In this document: piece by piece, positions 1,686-52,466 of the stretch | How positions within the stretch are numbered: position 1 is the first letter of the stretch | How the letters are laid out: each line of letters starts with the position of its first letter | DNA from: a virus | Reading direction: 5' to 3' (one strand) | Length of the DNA: 64,000 bases | UHGV virus genome: UHGV-0042229 | The notes under the pieces: generated by a model | The model's input: the letters and a program-made list of their open reading frames with translations, nothing else | Databases searched by the model: none | What the model was told of the DNA's origin: nothing | Translations under genes and position numbers: made by a program

Positions 1686-2537
1686 ATGATAAATTATGTC
1701 TACGGCGAACAACTGTACCAGGAGTTCGTCAGCTTCAGGGATCTCTTTCTAAAAAAAGCTGTTGCACGCGCCCAACACGTTGATACAGCCAGCGACGGTC
1801 GTCCTGTACGCCCGGTTGTCGTTCTACCGTTCAAAGAAACTGACAGCATTCAGGCTGAAATTGATAAATGGACTTTAATGGCGCGGGAACTGGAACAGTA
1901 CCCAGACCTCAATATCCCAAAGACTATTTTATATCCAGTGCCTAACATCCTTCGCGGTGTGCGTAAGGTTACAACTTATCAGACAGAGGCTGTGAACAGC
2001 GTCAACATGACCGCTGGCCGCATTATTCATCTGATTGATAAGGACATTCGCATCCAAAAAAGCGCGGGGATCAATGAGCACAGTGCGAAATACATAGAGA
2101 ACCTGGAAGCAACAAAAGAGCTAATGAAGCAGTACCCGGAGGATGAAAAATTCCGTATGCGCGTACACGGCTTTAGCGAAACAATGCTGCGCGTCCACTA
2201 CATTTCCAGTAGCCCTAACTACAATGATGGTAAATCAGTTAGTTACCATGTGCCACTGTGTGGCGTGTTTATCTGCGATGAAACTCTCCGTGATGGAATT
2301 ATCATCAACGGTGAATTCGAAAAAGCAAAATTTAGCCTTTATGACTCTATAGATCCGATCATCTGCGACCGCTGGCCGCAGGCAAAAATATATCGCCTGG
2401 CAGATATTGAAAATGTAAAAAAACAAATTGCCATCACTCGCGAAGAGAAAAAGGTCAAATCAGCCGCATCAGTTACGCGCAGCCGTAAAACCAAGAAGGG
2501 GCAGCCAGTAAACGACAACCCCGAAAGCGCGCAATAA
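1686..2537 (+). CDS. c1: C1 repressor of lysis (283 aa)
   Basis: 283-aa ORF starting MINYVYGEQLYQEFVSFRDLFLKKAVARAQHV..., recognised as P1 C1; cognate 17-bp operators recur across the window. Confidence 0.92.
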   Translation: MINYVYGEQLYQEFVSFRDLFLKKAVARAQHVDTASDGRPVRPVVVLPFKETDSIQAEIDKWTLMARELEQYPDLNIPKTILYPVPNILRGVRKVTTYQTEAVNSVNMTAGRIIHLIDKDIRIQKSAGINEHSAKYIENLEATKELMKQYPEDEKFRMRVHGFSETMLRVHYISSSPNYNDGKSVSYHVPLCGVFICDETLRDGIIINGEFEKAKFSLYDSIDPIICDRWPQAKIYRLADIENVKKQIAITREEKKVKSAASVTRSRKTKKGQPVNDNPESAQ

Positions 2538-2569
2538 ATTATGCCCGGCATCAACCGGGCATTCTTCCA

Positions 2570-3685
2570 TTATTCAGCCGCCACCGGTTTTAACAAGCCA
2601 GCATCGAGCAGTTTACGCGTCAACCACTGCTGGCCTTTACCCGTTAATTGAGGCGTCAACCGTATCTGGTAGCCATCTTCATCATCCAGCACCACTTCTT
2701 TCACCGTGAAATACCCCGCGTTGATGTACTGCTGGAACGGCACATTTTTACGTCCACCGGACGCTATCAGGATGCCGTTCTCCCGTAACCAGACAAACAG
2801 CGCGTTTTGCTTAAGTCCAACAACCTTTGCAAAATTCCCAATCAGGATCCCTTTAGCTACTGATACCCGGTCGGCAAAATCGACTTTAGGAGCGGCGGCC
2901 ACCAGCTGCTGATTTAGCTGGTGGGCTTTCTGTTCCAGAAGCTGCTTTTGTTCAGCCAGTTCGGCAGCCAGGCGCAGAGCTTCTGGAAGCGTCTGGGGGA
3001 TTGCAACCGGTTGCTGTTCTTTTTGCCGGAAGTAGCTGTCTTCCAGTTTTTCAAAGAATGCCCATGCCTGATCGGTTTCGAGCATTTTAGCGTGGCGGGC
3101 TGCGCCGCGTTCCGTCCAGAGGATGAGTGAGCGGGCTTTAGGAGAGATAGGATTTTGTGAGTTACTTAAAGTCACCCGCAAATTGTTCAAATCATCTCCA
3201 ATAACTTTATAGAAATGCTTACCTTCACAAAAACGTTCAGCATTACGGGAAAAGTTCTTCTTGATGTTATCCGCATCTGTCCCATACCCCTTAGCAAGGA
3301 TCTTAGTTGTCACTACACGCACTCCCTGCCACTCTAGAACGGGAATTTCATCCGGCTGACTTTGAACAACCACCAGTTCTGATTCCTGAACTAAAGGTGT
3401 ATTAATTTTTTCAGATTTAACGTTAGTAGCTTTCATTCTGTGTGCCTCCTTGCGTGTTTCGGCTGCGACGGTTGCGTAATTCAGATGCCCCTGTTCGAGC
3501 AGGTATTCACGGATATCAGACAGCAGGATACGGTGAACAGCGTTCTTGTCCTTTCTCCGGTAAAGTTGTTTGGTGATCATGAAGTAGTTGGCAATAACGC
3601 CAGGTATATCCCTGGTACTGATACAGGCAGTGTGCTGTTCAATTGCCTCGATCATCTCTTCACGGGTAACTAACGATGTTCTCAT
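2570..3685 (-). CDS. Antirepressor-like protein (371 aa), second ant copy
   Basis: N-terminal ~90 aa and C-terminal ~130 aa (PQTLPEALRLAAELAEQK...GNFAKVVGLKQNALF...QIRLTPQLTGKGQQWLTRKLLDAGLLKPVA) closely resemble the immI Ant at 50874-51917; central domain differs. ATGA overlap with upstream icd-like ORF. Confidence 0.75.
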   Translation of the reverse strand: MRTSLVTREEMIEAIEQHTACISTRDIPGVIANYFMITKQLYRRKDKNAVHRILLSDIREYLLEQGHLNYATVAAETRKEAHRMKATNVKSEKINTPLVQESELVVVQSQPDEIPVLEWQGVRVVTTKILAKGYGTDADNIKKNFSRNAERFCEGKHFYKVIGDDLNNLRVTLSNSQNPISPKARSLILWTERGAARHAKMLETDQAWAFFEKLEDSYFRQKEQQPVAIPQTLPEALRLAAELAEQKQLLEQKAHQLNQQLVAAAPKVDFADRVSVAKGILIGNFAKVVGLKQNALFVWLRENGILIASGGRKNVPFQQYINAGYFTVKEVVLDDEDGYQIRLTPQLTGKGQQWLTRKLLDAGLLKPVAAE

Positions 3686-3903
3686 AGTCCCTCCTGAGCA
3701 GAAGCGTTAACAGGGAGGCACCAGTAACTGAGAGAATTGCGTGAATCAGTGGAAAAACGGGCAGAGAAAATACATGGGGCGTCAGGAAGCTGAGAGCGGG
3801 CCTCATCTTCTGTCGGTGCAATAACGAAGTGATAGTGACGTTTTTGGCAGGAGTAAAAGCGCCAGATAAATTCAGGATGAGTTGGGGTAGGGATAGTAGC
3901 CAT
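3682..3903 (-). CDS. Icd-like protein (73 aa), second copy
   Basis: From ATG at 3903 with AGGAGG RBS: MATIPTPTHPEFIWRFYSCQKRHYHFVIAPTEDEARSQLPDAPCIFSARFSTDSRNSLSYW..., highly similar to the 73-aa icd at 51914-52135. The track ORF 3682-4131 is an in-frame upstream extension. Confidence 0.6.
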   Translation of the reverse strand: MATIPTPTHPEFIWRFYSCQKRHYHFVIAPTEDEARSQLPDAPCIFSARFSTDSRNSLSYWCLPVNASAQEGL

Positions 3904-3959
3904 ATTGGCAGCCTCCTTAGACGTTGGTATGTAACCACCGCAGAAGAGACCAATCTTGC

Positions 3960-4050
3960 TGGCGGTGGACTGTACGGAGTTGGCCTTACTGGCGTCCAAG
4001 GTAACCAGCCTACCCGAAGGTAGCCCCATACAGCCCACCATTGTAGAGGT
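3960..4050 (-). ncRNA. Putative c4-like antisense RNA of the second immunity module (approximate bounds)
   Basis: Segment aaccagcctacccgaaggtagccccatacagcccaccattgta parallels the presumed c4 region aaccagcaggccgaagcctccccatcacgccccaccataattt upstream of icd at 52226-52270; flanking loop sequence differs. Confidence 0.3.
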
Positions 4051-4063
4051 GTGCGTGTACGCC

Positions 4064-4097
4064 GATACAAAAAAAAGACGCGAGCGGCGTCTGTATC
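4064..4097 (-). terminator. Rho-independent terminator downstream of pacB
   Basis: On the minus strand: stem gacgccgctcgcgtc followed by T8 (A-run 4069-4076 on plus), with outer gataca/tgtatc pairing. Confidence 0.6.
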
Positions 4098-4222
4098 GCC
4101 TTAGACTTAAGCGGGAGGCCAATCCCGGCACCCGTTTTAATGAGGTGCCTGATAAGCATAAACCGAAAATGCCTCAAGGCGCAAGAGGTCAGGTTCAATG
4201 TAACATCGGCAGTCAAAAAACA

Positions 4223-4239
4223 CAATTTATTAGAGCAAG
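4223..4239 (-). promoter_or_regulatory. C1 operator-like site just downstream of pacB stop
   Basis: caatttattagagcaag, 15/17 to reverse-complement consensus. Confidence 0.55.
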
Positions 4240-4242
4240 ATT

Positions 4243-5727
4243 TTACTCATTAAGCCATGCCAGAGCTTCATCAACCTGCGCTTCGTCTTCGACGCTAAGC
4301 ACTTCATCCTGGGGAACATAATCCGCCAGCATAGCGAAACAATATGTATCCCAATGGTCTGGTGAGTGCAGGTTGAGTTTTTTCTTCATATCCTCCTTAC
4401 TCATCACCTTCCATTGACCTGCGGAGTTAATCCCTACAGGGATTTTCGACGCTTCCTCAATAGTTTCATTACCCTTATCCAGTCTCATACGACCAGATTT
4501 TACGGCCTCTGCGGCTTGAACGTTGGCATAAGCACGTTTATCAAAGTACAGGCTCTTATCTTCACGGCTATGCATCTTTTTACCCCAGCGTATACGCTGT
4601 ACGGTAATACCATAATACTCGTACATCAGATCCGCCGTTGCTTTACCCAGGCCATCGCCGTCTATCGCTATGGTGATATTTGGGAATCGCTCAGGATTAC
4701 ATTCTGCGAAAATTTTGGCGGCAAGCTGCGTTTCTGTAACGTCTGTGTATTCCAGCATTCGATAGTTGATTACACGGCGTTTATTTCGCTGGCCGGACAC
4801 CATCATGATATTGATAACGGACTTATCCCGTCCCGTACCACCAGCAACGTCCACACATGCAAGCCAGCCCCATCCTTTTGCAATCTTGACTTTCCGCCGC
4901 GTTGCACGTTCAACCTCATCACGTCCAAGAAGGAAGCCATCCTGTGATTTAGGGAATAGGCCGCGTACCTTAATCATGTACATAGGGTTATCGCGCCCGC
5001 CGTACTCCGCCAGCTTCATTTTGATAAATGCTGGCGTTACCAGCGGTGATTCCTCACTGTTAAGCGTGATCGCCGTATAAACGCCATCAGGGTTACCAGG
5101 ACGCTTGGCCAGTTTATGGTGTGTATCGTAGAAATAGCCGCTTGGGCGTGTAGGCTGTGACAGCAATAAGATGCGGTTATCCTGTCCGGTAAGAGCACCG
5201 GTGATGATACCGAAAGCTCTATCACTGACACCGGAGGCTTCATCGATAATATACAGAAGATGATCTGCGTGTTCACCGGCGAGAGCTTCTTCACTTCCCA
5301 GACGAAAGCCCTTCGGTACTACAGTCCATACACCTTTACCAGTAACCTCATAGAAAGCGGTTTCTGTCAGAACAAAATAATCAGCAAGCCATGGAAAACG
5401 GCTGGTGGCAGTAGCCCAGTTTATCTTGATGTACTTGAATATACCGGTCATTACCTGCTGAATTTTGTTCGCAACGATAATGGCTCGGGCACCGGGATAC
5501 ATGATTATGAACAACATGATCATGATAGAAGTCATGTCTGATTTCCCGGTACCGTGGCCAGACGAAACAGATGTCTTGCTACCCTGTTCCTGCACAGACT
5601 CAATAATCAGATCCTGCTGCCAGGTAGGTGTTTTGCCGAACAAAACATCAGCGGCCGCAATCCAGTCATAACGATATAGCGCCACCAGCTCGCGCCAACG
5701 TGGATCCGTTACGCAACTTCTGGCCAT
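4243..5727 (-). CDS. pacB: Terminase large subunit PacB (494 aa)
   Basis: 494-aa ORF immediately downstream of and overlapping pacA; size and position as P1 pacB. Confidence 0.9.
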
Positions 5728-31542: not shown

Positions 31543-34500
31543 ATACCCAAAACGTCATGAGCTACACCTCGAGTGTCCCCCTTACAAGACACAGAACGTC
31601 TGGCAAAAAGAGGTTCCACTCTGAAGCCACTGTCATGATAAAGCTCTCTGATGTTTGGCGCGCCACTGTTAGTAATGAGAACCTTTGCACCTCGACGATG
31701 AGCATCCGTCAACAGAGACACCAGGCGTTTTTGCTCTTCAAACTTAAAGTCATGACCGGAATAGTTCGTGAATCCCTCTGTATTTGGAAGCGGTTCATAC
31801 GGCGGATCGCAAAAGATGACATCTCCTTCTCCGGCAGCTTCAATCACCGCTGCAAAATCACCGCATACAAACTCAGACCGCCCTTCCGCACCGAGGAAGG
31901 CTTCCATCTCCTGTAATGGGAAATACGGAGTTTTATACTTCCCATAACCGACATTGAACTCACCGGCCTGGTTGTAGCGCGTCAATCCGTTAAAACAATG
32001 TCGGTTCAGGAACAAAAACGCCGCTGCGCGATGTAAATCATCATAGACTTGTTTGTTAAACGCATTCCGTACTGCCAAGTATCCCTCCTGGGTGTTGTAG
32101 TCCAGGAAAAAACGATGTGCCAGAGTGATAAGTGAATGCTCCTCGCGTTGCAGAGTCTTGTAAAAGTTAATCAGGTCAGCATTCACATCATTTAGCAGAT
32201 TTTCCTGGTATCCGGCATTCATGAAGACAGCTCCGCCACCGACGAAAGGTTCAATCAGGCGCTTCCCTTCTGGCAAATAGCGAAAGATTTGTTCCAGAAC
32301 ACCAAATTTTCCACCGGCCCATTTGAATATGGACCGTTCGAATTCTGCCGCTGGTTTAACTTTTCGCTCTTTTGTTTCACTTCCTTCTTTCTGCCGACAT
32401 ACGGCCTTAGTAATCCGATCGCCAATCCAGCGCATTACTGGTATTGCCATACTATTGCCGATCGCTTTGTAACGCGGTCCGTCAGCTGCAAGCATTGCGG
32501 CCTCTTCTTCGCTTAAATCTGGATAGTGATTGTGCAGATATGCCAGTTCATCTGAATTAACTTTTTTACGCTTTTCCGTAGGGATCAACGTATGCCAATC
32601 AGGAAAACCTTGCAGCCTTTCACATTCGACAGGGGTAAGACGGCGCATTCTACCGTCGCCGAGCAATACAATTGGTGCTTCATGGTTACATGTCAAAGTT
32701 GGTGCCGAATTATCGGTTTTTATCTCAGCCCCTCCTTGCCCATGTGCCATGGCAATTATGTTTGTATCATCGCAAGTTCTGATAGCGATGTTTGAAGTAT
32801 ATCTGGTAGTTTCCTTCCCCTCGCCTCTGCTCGGCGCAATATTCCGGCGCACGCCTTCGAACTCAAAAAGTACCGTTGCGGGATCGAGGTCTGTTCGAGC
32901 ACTTGCGACAACAAACACGCGTCGGCGTCGTTGTGCCACTCCGAAGTATTGGGCATCAAGGATTCTCCAGGCCACTTTTCGCTGCGGTCCATAAATACAA
33001 CCACACTGCGGCCACTTTGGAGCATGGCAACCGGTTTTGACATCCCACCGCCAGAATGCGTTACTTTTTCCTGATTCAGGTCGATCACCTGGTTCGAATG
33101 GCGCATCTTCTCCAGCCAATCCGGCAAGGAAACATCCGAAGGCGTTATCTGCCGATGACAAGACTCCTGGGACATTTTCCCAGACGATAACGGCTGGTTT
33201 GAGAAATGACTCAGCCCGTTTGTCGTCAATTGCATTTGCAAGCTCCACATACTTTAAAGTTAGCGCGCCACGCTCATCATCAAGCCCACCACGTAATCCA
33301 GCGATACTGAATGCCTGACAGTTATGGACCACCGCACCATTGAGGATATAGGAATGATCACCTTCGACTTCTATGTTGTATACAGTATCTAGGCCTACCG
33401 ATTTAAACTCTTTGACTGTTCGTAAAAGCATTCCATGAGCCAATCTTGATTTACGTGACAATTTCTGCGGGCAGATTGTTACCTGATAATAATTCCGTTG
33501 ATTTACCACGCGATCCTCAATCACTTTTTTGGGCTTAACTTCAATAAAGCTGACCGAAGAAACATAACCACAAGTCTGTGACAACTCCGCAACGCCCCAA
33601 GCAAGCGCAGGACTAACACTATTAATTCTAAATCCCGCTTTACCACTTGGTGTCCCATCAGTATCAAGATAGCCTTGTAAAAACACATGACGCAATGGAT
33701 GCGACATAACCCATGCAGGGATACGCTTAGCATGGCTTAACTCGCCAAAATGTTCATTAAGCCAATTGGCATAACACGTATCATTCAAGGTTACTTTGAT
33801 GCTCCCTCGGATTTCGCTTGCCACGGAAAATATGTTTTCTGGTATGCGGCAATGAAACTTTCTCAATTTCTGGCAATTTATGCCAAAAACAACCGCCTTC
33901 TTAGATTTACCTCTCCATCTCCTAATATATCCATCGCCAACATAAGCGCCCGCAAGATACATAGCCTGTTCTTCAGACAAGAACCGAGAACAAATATCTG
34001 GAGATGCAATATTGAAATTAGTTAGAGCACACCATTGATATCCCGGCATATCACATGCTGCTCGCCATTCCGGTTCAGACAACAACTCTCTCTTAAAATA
34101 TGTGCCATTTTTCCGGGTGTTTTGGGCTTTCCACCGAACCGCCAGGAAGGGATGGTCATTGGTTGTTCTTATACCTAAAGGCTGCCCAACGGCATTAAGT
34201 AACCCCGTATTAGCTATTTTTGAACCAACTCTTTTTACTTGTTGTAACCGCCCGAGATGACTGACTACGTAATCGCCAGGGCAAACATCTTCTATTGGTT
34301 TATAACCATTTTTACAAAGAACCATATGCCCCGCGGTAAAACATGGTGTCCCTCCCACCAGCACATCAGGGGCTTCAATTTCTCCAGCCTGGACTTTTTG
34401 GGCGAGTTTTGTCATGTCGCCAAGGTTGGCGACATGGGGCCAGTGGTACGCAAGAACGGCAGATGGAAAAGGCTCGATTTCAGCAAACCACGCCGGACGC

Positions 34501-48401: not shown

Positions 48402-48557
48402 TTACCTTTCAGATTCGTAGGCTGTGAAGACAGTGACCTCCGTCTGGCCGGTTCGGATTCGTACCTCGCAGAGGTCTTTCCTCGTTACCAGTGCCGTCAC
48501 AATGACGGTTAAACAGATGACGATCAGAGCGATTAACATCGCTTTTTGCTGCTTCAT
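48402..48557 (-). CDS. Hok/Gef-family type I toxin (51 aa)
   Basis: MKQQKAMLIALIVICLTVIVTALVTRKDLCEVRIRTGQTEVTVFTAYESER, near-identical in pattern to E. coli Gef (MKQHKAMIVALIVICITAVVAALVTRKDLCEVHIRTGQTEVAVFTAYESE). Confidence 0.75.
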   Translation of the reverse strand: MKQQKAMLIALIVICLTVIVTALVTRKDLCEVRIRTGQTEVTVFTAYESER

Positions 48558-48615
48558 AGCCTGCTTCTCCTTGACCTTTTGGTCGGTAAGAGGCTAATCT
48601 ACGTATGCTAAGCAT
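48409..48615 (-). CDS. mok-like overlapping reading frame (68 aa)
   Basis: Track ORF in a different frame covering almost all of the hok-like gene, as mok does in hok/sok loci. Confidence 0.4.
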   Translation of the reverse strand: MLSIRRLASYRPKGQGEAGYEAAKSDVNRSDRHLFNRHCDGTGNEERPLRGTNPNRPDGGHCLHSLRI

Positions 48616-48738
48616 AGATATGGCCTCAGATTAATGTTAAGCGTCTTGCAGGACGCGTAATGTTATCTGGGGCTTTCTTCTATCTGCTTTTCGGGTAATG
48701 CCTGAAGCAGATAGCCTCAAGCACCCGCAACGATTGTA

Positions 48739-52135: not shown

Positions 52136-52194
52136 AGTTACGGCCTCACAATCAGGTTTAACAACCTGCTACCCGCTGCTAAACAGGTGGCAGG

Positions 52195-52300
52195 ACGTGA
52201 CGGGGTTAGCAGACTGGCGATTGTGAAACCAGCAGGCCGAAGCCTCCCCATCACGCCCCACCATAATTTGGGCGTAACGCAGTTTTACGGACACAAAAAT
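52195..52300 (-). ncRNA. c4: Putative c4 antisense RNA region (approximate bounds)
   Basis: Between operator and icd; direct repeats gctgctaaac at 52175-52184 and 52344-52353 (candidate targets) flank a segment whose transcript carries the complementary ctgctaac (plus strand gttagcag, 52205-52212). Exact ends not determined. Confidence 0.4.
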
Positions 52301-52449
52301 ACCGCAATATCGGATATCTGCGGCTGTCCGCACAATCATTCAGGCTGCTAAACCCGGTCGCAGAATTTGCTACGACGGCGAAACTATAAGCCTGAACGAT
52401 TAAAAGGTCAATATGATGCAAAAAGATAGCATTCGCGACTTAAAAATAC

Positions 52450-52466
52450 AAATTTATTAGAGCAGA
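52450..52466 (-). promoter_or_regulatory. C1 operator-like site (Op51-like) upstream of immI
   Basis: aaatttattagagcaga, 15/17 to reverse-complement consensus. Confidence 0.6.

Follow-up and report, generated by a model that had tools for sequence, protein, structure and literature searches.

The 64,000-nucleotide (nt) stretch of virus genome UHGV-0042229, referred to throughout as the window, is that of a P1-like phage-plasmid, and the 1.7 kb at positions 2538-4242 very probably form a complete second antirepressor module of the immI type, inserted between pacB and c1 and carrying its own c4-type antisense RNA along with that RNA's own targets. The spacer between these two genes in P1 is only 24 nt; in the window, where pacB occupies 4243-5727 on the minus strand and c1 occupies 1686-2537 on the plus strand, the extra DNA sits exactly between both stop codons. 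The canonical immI region keeps its usual place at ~50.9-52.5 kb, and the additional unit, here called module II, lies at the pacB-c1 position rather than between sim and kilA. Part for part it copies the immI region of P1, with an operator-like site, a1/b1, c4, a2/b2, icd and nested ant1/ant2. The present analysis establishes the family membership of the RNA, its fold, its four target sites, the covariation among these elements, the paralogy of the icd and ant genes, and the borders of the insertion.

The antisense RNA and its leader

An Rfam scan of the whole window returned two full-length C4 matches, both on the minus strand. One of them, at 52183-52268 (69.6 bits), is the c4 of the canonical immI region, with a match to the a1b1 family just upstream on the same strand at 52337-52389. 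The other, at 3958-4045 and here called c4-II, scores 75.9 bits against C4 (RF01695; cut-off 45, E 5e-13), covers model positions 1-87 of 87 and has no non-canonical pairs flagged. A first-pass annotation, made from the letters of the sequence, had proposed a c4-like antisense RNA upstream of an icd-like gene at this place, and that is what the family searches find, the gene (icd-II) lying at 3682-3903 on the minus strand. The 88 nt fold into the three-helix shape of the family, a long closing stem round two hairpins, at -41.6 kcal/mol (z = -3.5), and none of 200 shuffled sequences is equally stable. By analogy with the 77-nt c4 of P1, the mature RNA is predicted to run from about 3961 to 4039 (~79 nt); a G-C-C-A follows the closing stem in all of the type-II variants described below, and processing of c4 by RNase P was reportedly described by Hartmann et al. 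in 1995.

The two recognition segments lie on the minus strand at the positions expected of a c4 RNA: b', CCUUGGACG (3993-4001), in the loop of hairpin 2, and a', AGGCCAA (3980-3986), single-stranded between hairpin 2 and the closing stem. The claim that the recognition element differs from that of immI is borne out for a', of which the quoted agttggcctt is the reverse complement, and the b' segment differs as well. The three strings cited in that annotation are all present on the plus strand, AGTTGGCCTT at 3978, GGGAGGCCAATCCC at 4113 and GGTTAGCAGA at 52204.

Adjoining c4-II on the same strand is an IsrK-type leader RNA (4069-4148), composed of hairpin 1, hairpin 2 with a1 in its loop, a single-stranded b1 and an intrinsic terminator; the Rfam isrK model (RF01394) matches it with 60.8 bits at 4071-4148, against a cut-off of 50. 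The c4-a1b1 model (RF03163) was also tried and discarded, with only 20.5 bits at 4108-4161 against a cut-off of 46.7; the isrK model fits instead, and the a1 hairpin of the leader nevertheless aligns to the c4-a1b1 model. The terminator, AGACGC-CGCUC-GCGUCU followed by U8 (4069-4092, minus strand), is called by a terminator scan and is conserved in all homologous modules. The earlier description of a motif at 4113-4126, complementary to the c4 loop and upstream of a pacB terminator, was thus right in its first half, the motif containing the a1 site in the leader's hairpin loop, and wrong in its second: the terminator belongs to the leader, it lies inside the inserted module, and the pacB-c1 gap of P1 has the short length given above.

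When the leader is folded at full length, cis pairing is predicted for both segments, a1 with a' and b1 with b' (z = -4.0), a structure that corresponds to the "inactive structure A" of the work on Salmonella prophage Gifsy-1 (PMC4825925). An alternative partner was also observed for CCACCGC (3962-3968), the 3' half of the closing stem of c4: it can pair with GCGGUGG (3935-3941), in which case a2 comes to lie in a hairpin loop. This pair covaries, appearing as CUACCGC/GCGGUAG in modules of the RCS47 type, and it has a counterpart in P1, which suggests a precursor structure competing with the c4 fold.

Target sites and covariation

Four target sites on the minus strand surround c4-II. Upstream of it, within the leader, are a1 (UUGGCCU, 4116-4122), in the hairpin-2 loop and a perfect complement of a', and b1 (GUCUAAGG, 4099-4106), which pairs with CCUUGGAC of b' with one G-U at a predicted -12.4 kcal/mol. 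Downstream are a2 (UUGGUCU, 3947-3953), pairing with a' with one G-U at -8.6 kcal/mol, and b2 (CGUCUAAGG, 3915-3923), which overlaps the icd-II Shine-Dalgarno sequence AAGGAGG (3912-3918) and pairs with b' at -13.9 kcal/mol. Of these the first-pass annotation had seen a1 and missed the other three. All four stand at places expected from the annotated P1 sequence, the position of b2 relative to icd being equal to that in P1, where repression is mediated by the a2/b2 sites. The composite pattern TTGGYCT-N(5-35)-GTCYAAGG occurs three times in the 64 kb (at a1b1, at a2b2 and antisense of c4) against 0.04 occurrences expected by chance. With the real flanking sequences the summed a'/b' duplex energy is -46.2 kcal/mol, as compared with -32.5 +/- 3.3 kcal/mol for dinucleotide-shuffled flanks, and 0 of 1000 shuffles reach the real value.

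A search of IMG/VR with the Icd-II protein gave 80 loci, 78 of them with a c4 upstream, and with reference phages the collection comes to 85. Among these there are 16 distinct c4 sequences and 13 b'/a' combinations, and each of the 13 is accompanied by cognate a1/b1 upstream and a2/b2 downstream at conserved offsets, a three-way covariation. A single MAFFT alignment of all c4 types was abandoned; in it the immI-type hairpin 2 was misaligned, and pair counting was for that reason restricted to the 8 distinct ungapped type-II variants. In these, 27 of the 27 pairs of the c4 fold are kept (100% of 216 cells), 11 of them compensatory with changes on both sides, while slid-partner controls are 24-51% paired. 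For a1:a' together with b1:b', 100% of cells are paired and 9 of 15 pairs are compensatory; for a':a2 together with b':b2 the corresponding values are 96% and 9 of 16, with a':a2 alone at 100%. The covariation score of neither set is reached in 500 shuffles.

When the loops of all 13 types are set against the targets of all 13, the cognate combinations average -40.7 kcal/mol and the non-cognate ones -23.6 kcal/mol, and the cognate combination is the best in every row and every column. Such a pattern is what one would expect from a functional antisense system that has diversified in specificity, and not from an unexpressed remnant or from protein-coding constraint; that different loop types occupy one site and yet retain their cognate targets requires selection to be ongoing.

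The module is widespread. The whole of it (2500-4300) is covered to at least 80% in 268 PLSDB plasmids, the RNA stretch 3896-4175 is found at 99% identity or more in 129 E. coli RefSeq records, and the module is also present in phages RCS47, JL22 and vB_EcoM-673R5. Rfam recognizes both isrK and C4 in 5 of the 6 loci fetched; vB_EcoM-673R5 (L002) gives a C4 match and no isrK match at the gathering threshold. Compared with RCS47, the insert as a whole is 92.6% identical, the RNA stretch only 76.5%. At the pacB-c1 site of RCS47 and JL22 the c4 is D6-like, and the c4 of the window shares its closing and hairpin-2 stems with those of Shiga toxin (Stx) phages. The far lower identity of the RNA stretch and these differing stems point to exchange of a central specificity cassette. 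All four combinations of two b' types (UUUGACG and UUUUGCG) and two a' types (GUCUCAA and GUUCCAA) were seen at one site (IMG/VR loci L032-L054, RCS47 L001, JL22 L003 and D6 L005), suggesting independent assortment of the two address segments.

Two predicted specificities in one genome

The textbook example of specificity that depends on a few bases of an antisense RNA is the heteroimmunity between P1 and P7. As the first-pass annotation had stated, the c4 RNAs of these two phages differ in their recognition segments, b' and a', which set the specificity; beyond these only a single base distinguishes them, on the 3' side of the closing stem. The window's immI region has exactly the c4 of P7. 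The RNA regions of module II and of immI resemble each other too little in nucleotide sequence to be joined by megablast. The predicted energies of the c4-II loops with their own targets are -11.3 and -8.6 kcal/mol for a' at the upstream and downstream sites, and -12.4 and -13.9 kcal/mol for b'; with the immI targets the same loops give -6.3 and -8.8 kcal/mol (a') and -6.8 and -5.5 kcal/mol (b'). In the reverse combination, the loops of the immI RNA (c4-I) against the module II targets, the values are -4.2 and -4.6 kcal/mol for the two a sites and -5.6 and -5.4 kcal/mol for the two b sites. The predicted cross-pairing is weak, and the window contains two antisense systems of different predicted specificity, the conclusion toward which the earlier annotation had leaned. 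The two switches should be mutually blind, since both a' and b' of c4-II differ from those of the P7-type c4.

Several IMG/VR contigs carry two or three icd/c4 modules, and their a'/b' types are always different (the groups L013/L079/L085, L073/L080, L018/L075, L055/L081 and L064/L082). One 42-kb contig has three such modules, and in another, two modules of the immI type stand back to back.

Operator-like site and putative promoters

The C1 operator-like site of module II, CTTGCTCTAATAAATTG (4223-4239, minus strand), is the counterpart of Oc4/Op51 of P1 and departs from the 17-bp consensus at two positions, the same number as in the immI operator (52450-52466). The window contains 14 such sites, where 0.34 would be expected; the one in module II is kept in RCS47 and JL22, and its distance to a1 is 117 nt, as compared with 115 nt in the annotated P1.

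Two putative promoters on the minus strand would serve the module. The upstream candidate (4197-4225), proposed from the sequence and from the P1 annotation, has a weak match to the consensus, with -35 TTGTGT (4220-4225), a 17-nt spacer and -10 TACATT (4197-4202); its -35 overlaps the operator-like site, as does that of P2c4 in P1. The second candidate (4155-4184), with -35 TTGCGC (4179-4184), an 18-nt spacer and -10 TATGCT (4155-4160), has a predicted start near 4148, and its -10 precedes the first isrK base by six or seven bases (six intervening), a spacing that is the same in Gifsy-1, Ss-VASD and D6 (TATATT in the last). It is proposed by alignment with PisrK of Gifsy-1, for which promoter activity has been demonstrated (PMC4825925).

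The icd-II and ant-II genes

The icd-II gene encodes a 73-amino acid (aa) Icd-like protein with 78% identity to the immI Icd over 63 aa and a score of 49.8 bits against the NCBIfam model phage_ICD_like. Its stop overlaps the start of ant-II as ATGA, just as icd and ant overlap in P1. The first product of ant-II (ant1-II, 2570-3685, minus strand) is a 371-aa antirepressor paralogue with 54% identity to the immI Ant1; some 85 aa at the N-terminus and some 140 aa at the C-terminus are conserved, while the middle has been replaced by an ORF6N domain (Pfam ANT/KilAC, PF03374, and ORF6N, PF10543). The nested start of ant2-II (3436, minus strand) stands behind an AAGGAGG Shine-Dalgarno sequence 83 codons into the gene, an offset identical to that in P1. 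Because the N-terminal and KilAC parts are kept as in Ant1, Ant-II probably acts on C1.

Comparison with known systems

The order and spacing of parts are those of the P1/P7 immI region, annotated in P1 as Oc4, two promoters, a1, b1, c4, a2, b2, icd, ant1 and ant2; a' and b' occupy the same structural positions of the three-helix RNA and b2 lies over the icd ribosome-binding site. Apart from its location, module II differs from immI in the stems and loops of c4, in the center of Ant, with its ORF6N domain, and in having between a1/b1 and c4 a strong intrinsic terminator, which in P1 is matched only weakly. This weak counterpart follows b1 in the canonical immI region (CCGCAGAU..UGCGG, then UAUUUUUGUGU), at 52290-52330 of the window (minus strand) and at about 985-1030 of the P1 sequence (L087), and resembles the IsrK terminator weakly.

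A homologue with published experiments is the isrK locus of Gifsy-1. On the minus strand of that sequence (L089, 34074-34330) Rfam finds isrK at 34240-34316, an overlapping c4-a1b1 match above cut-off, and C4 at 34131-34214 (69 bits), directly upstream of the antirepressor gene. The a1 site, UUGGCGU, corresponds to IsrK nt 26-32, a', ACGCCAA, corresponds to transcript nt 158-164, and b2, AAUCACCGG, abuts the Shine-Dalgarno sequence of anrP. Module II and Gifsy-1 thus share isrK with its terminator, C4, b2 at the antirepressor ribosome-binding site and the same -10 spacing; Gifsy-1 differs in lacking icd, the antirepressor following directly after b2, in lacking a C1 operator, in its loops (a' as above, b' CGGUGAU) and in a downstream effect on AntQ. 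The published mutations G28A/C162U and G31A/C159U, which singly raise basal expression and in combination restore the inactive structure (PMC4825925), fall exactly in a1 and a' and are therefore a1:a' base pairs. The same study found that the promoter drives the operon and that some transcripts pass the terminator, that a stable processed RNA, STnc1160, arises from the orf45 region by way of read-through, and that IsrK over-expressed in trans increases antirepressor translation about 100-fold (PMC4825925). These correspondences suggest that the isrK locus of Gifsy-1, comprising IsrK and "orf45"/STnc1160, is the same a1b1/c4 system, with orf45 an RNA gene. Its authors likened the locus to CI/seqA of P4 rather than to c4 (Hershko-Shalev et al. 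2016, PMC4825925).

More distant relatives include many Stx-converting lambdoid phages, in which the stretch from leader through c4 to a2b2 is 79-80% identical to that of module II, and D6, in which it is recognizable; these modules differ from ours in an upstream promoter region without a C1 operator, in other antirepressors and in other loops. In Ss-VASD and F765 the closing and hairpin-2 stems of c4 are identical or nearly so, while hairpin 1 and the loops differ. Ss-VASD (L004) also has an sRNA-Xcc1 match (2524-2607, 79.6 bits) directly before a second anti-repressor gene, downstream of the regulator controlled by isrK/c4. The CI RNA of P4 with seqA/seqB/seqC is similar by description, being a small RNA processed from a leader with complementary sites on both sides; what it does is to end the transcription of replication genes prematurely, and not to act at an antirepressor ribosome-binding site.

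Both RNAs belong to described Rfam families, and in that respect module II is a fairly ordinary new instance of a known RNA family. Two short hypothetical open reading frames (ORFs) and an ant gene between pacB and c1 have been noted, "as in RCS47" (PMC6906374), and a second c4/icd region is known from a D6-like plasmid prophage (PMC6799933). A 2025 review lists IsrK and c4 as unrelated entries (PMC12197685), and the 2010 description of the c4-a1b1 motif makes no mention of isrK, while citing an old suggestion of competition for c4 between a1/b1 and a2/b2. In the searchable literature we found neither the RNA pair in P1-like plasmids, its target sites and the diversity of loop types described here, nor any statement that IsrK and the a1b1 leader are one and the same. 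The searches for a functional link between isrK and c4 found none; only a paper on an APSE phage and one on Xylella surfaced, neither of which connects the two functionally, and searches for work on small RNAs of Stx phages turned up nothing pertinent.

A proposed mechanism and its alternatives

For the promoters, control by C1, processing, repression, the decoy role of the leader and the action of Ant-II on C1, what we infer for module II is the following. Transcription of the minus strand would begin behind the C1 operator-like site and would first produce the IsrK-type leader with a1 and b1, stopping at the terminator; read-through would extend the transcript into c4-II, a2/b2, icd-II and the nested ant1/ant2-II. 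From this precursor c4-II would be excised as a stable RNA of ~79 nt, its 5' end probably made by RNase P as in P1 c4, and its b' loop and single-stranded a' would bind b2 and a2 so as to occlude the icd-II ribosome-binding site. Translational coupling to icd-II would then keep ant-II silent as well. The release of c4-II from read-through, its binding to a2/b2 and the block of icd-II have their basis in sequence, covariation and the homologous experiments; the later steps are extrapolations. In these the leader's a1 and b1 would compete for c4-II, in cis as part of the precursor and, in the form of the short terminated RNA, probably also in trans, so that repression can be relieved, and the operator-like site suggests that loss of C1 would raise transcription of the whole unit. 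Two separately controlled ways of making an Ant protein, a probable inactivator of C1, would then be open to the element.

Several observations weigh against this reading. A strong terminator separates the putative promoters from c4-II, which makes the RNA dependent on read-through. A consensus promoter scan called nothing on the minus strand and both candidates match the consensus poorly, for which reason they are proposed only by alignment with P1 and Gifsy-1. Three of the four target-site pairings contain a G-U wobble. The a' segment can pair with GAGGCCG at the immI icd ribosome-binding site at a predicted -8.8 kcal/mol through the palindromic GGCC core, so that discrimination would come mainly from b'. 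Finally, the authors of the Gifsy-1 study explain their data by translation of the ORF that overlaps c4 and not by an antisense RNA (PMC4825925).

That last explanation, transferred to module II, would make 3928-4041 a small upstream ORF like orf45 of Gifsy-1 and not an RNA gene, with translational coupling to the downstream genes under control of the IsrK-like RNA; we consider this improbable. From an AUG at 4039-4041 a reading frame does extend across the c4 region and continues without a shift into icd-II (ORF 3682-4131), a 100% identical plasmid has a partial "ash family protein" pseudo-coding sequence assigned by RefSeq/PGAP to exactly this interval (735-848 of L091, 3928-4041 of the window), and mutations in the start and stop codons of orf45 lowered the activation of anrP in Gifsy-1 (PMC4825925). 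The AUG, however, has no preceding Shine-Dalgarno sequence, icd-II has a strong one of its own, and the matching frame in P1 is stopped inside the b' loop. Variation clusters in the two loops and is matched at four non-coding targets, and changes in the stems are compensatory, all of which is RNA-like; for orf45 itself a review describes the nucleotide sequence as conserved and the amino-acid sequence as variable (PMC12197685). An NCBIfam search with the c4-overlapping peptide matched no model, so the "ash family" label is not traceable to one, and the pseudo-coding sequence, which starts at the AUG in the 5' stem of c4, is probably a mis-called RNA gene.

If anything slightly less probable is a mode of action like that of P4 CI, in which c4-II, by pairing with a2/b2 and with the a1/b1 of a leader still being transcribed, would control termination, at the leader terminator or by Rho downstream, rather than mainly translation. 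The repression of ant by P1 c4 is generally described as a translational block of icd, followed by polarity. A strong terminator does stand immediately 3' of b1, and the Gifsy-1 study, which describes IsrK as structurally homologous to SeqA of P4, raises the possibility of such control; against it, constitutive STnc1160 left the IsrK-mediated growth arrest of Gifsy-1 unreduced (PMC4825925). The predicted leader fold contains no antiterminator, that is, no alternative structure linking b1 to the terminator stem, and since b2 sits on the Shine-Dalgarno sequence in every variant, control of termination is the less likely main mode. That module II is an inactive relic of recombination, with RNAs that have no present role, we regard as having next to no likelihood: its promoters are weak by consensus and the same genome has a canonical immI, yet all of its ORFs are intact, the loops match all four targets, differing loop types at one site retain cognate targets, and the RNA stretch and the module recur among the many RefSeq and PLSDB records counted above.

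An antisense switch built on c4-II therefore remains the reading we prefer, and it leads to a wider proposal, which we offer tentatively as possible though short of probable. The IsrK-type leader would be a trans-acting decoy of its own c4, and "orf45"/STnc1160 of Gifsy-1 would be that c4; P1-like phage-plasmids would carry c4 locks in twos or threes, each blind to the others, and behind every lock would stand an Ant paralogue directed against one common C1 repressor; and a' and b' together would serve as an address in two parts, of which 13 or more combinations occur here, reshuffled by exchange of the central RNA cassette and deciding which co-resident or superinfecting relatives can induce each other. 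A large group of natural P1-like plasmids, many of them with resistance genes, hold a second, differently addressed copy of the switch, and together they make up a natural, ready-made set of orthogonal RNA-target pairs. The proposal offers a testable explanation of how related phage-plasmids coexist or induce one another, and it joins two literatures in which IsrK and c4 have been treated apart.

Other features of the window

Between the convergent stops of ant-II and c1 the sequence can form a GC-rich hairpin, GCCCGG-N6-CCGGGC (2543-2560), which may be a terminator, perhaps a bidirectional one, created by the insertion. Elsewhere in the window Rfam finds the sok antitoxin RNA at 48552-48726 on the minus strand (114.9 bits), implying an addiction module of the hok/sok type on the plasmid, and three tRNA genes, also on the minus strand (29203-29275, 30710-30782 and 30788-30860), which presumably are the tRNA cluster of P1.

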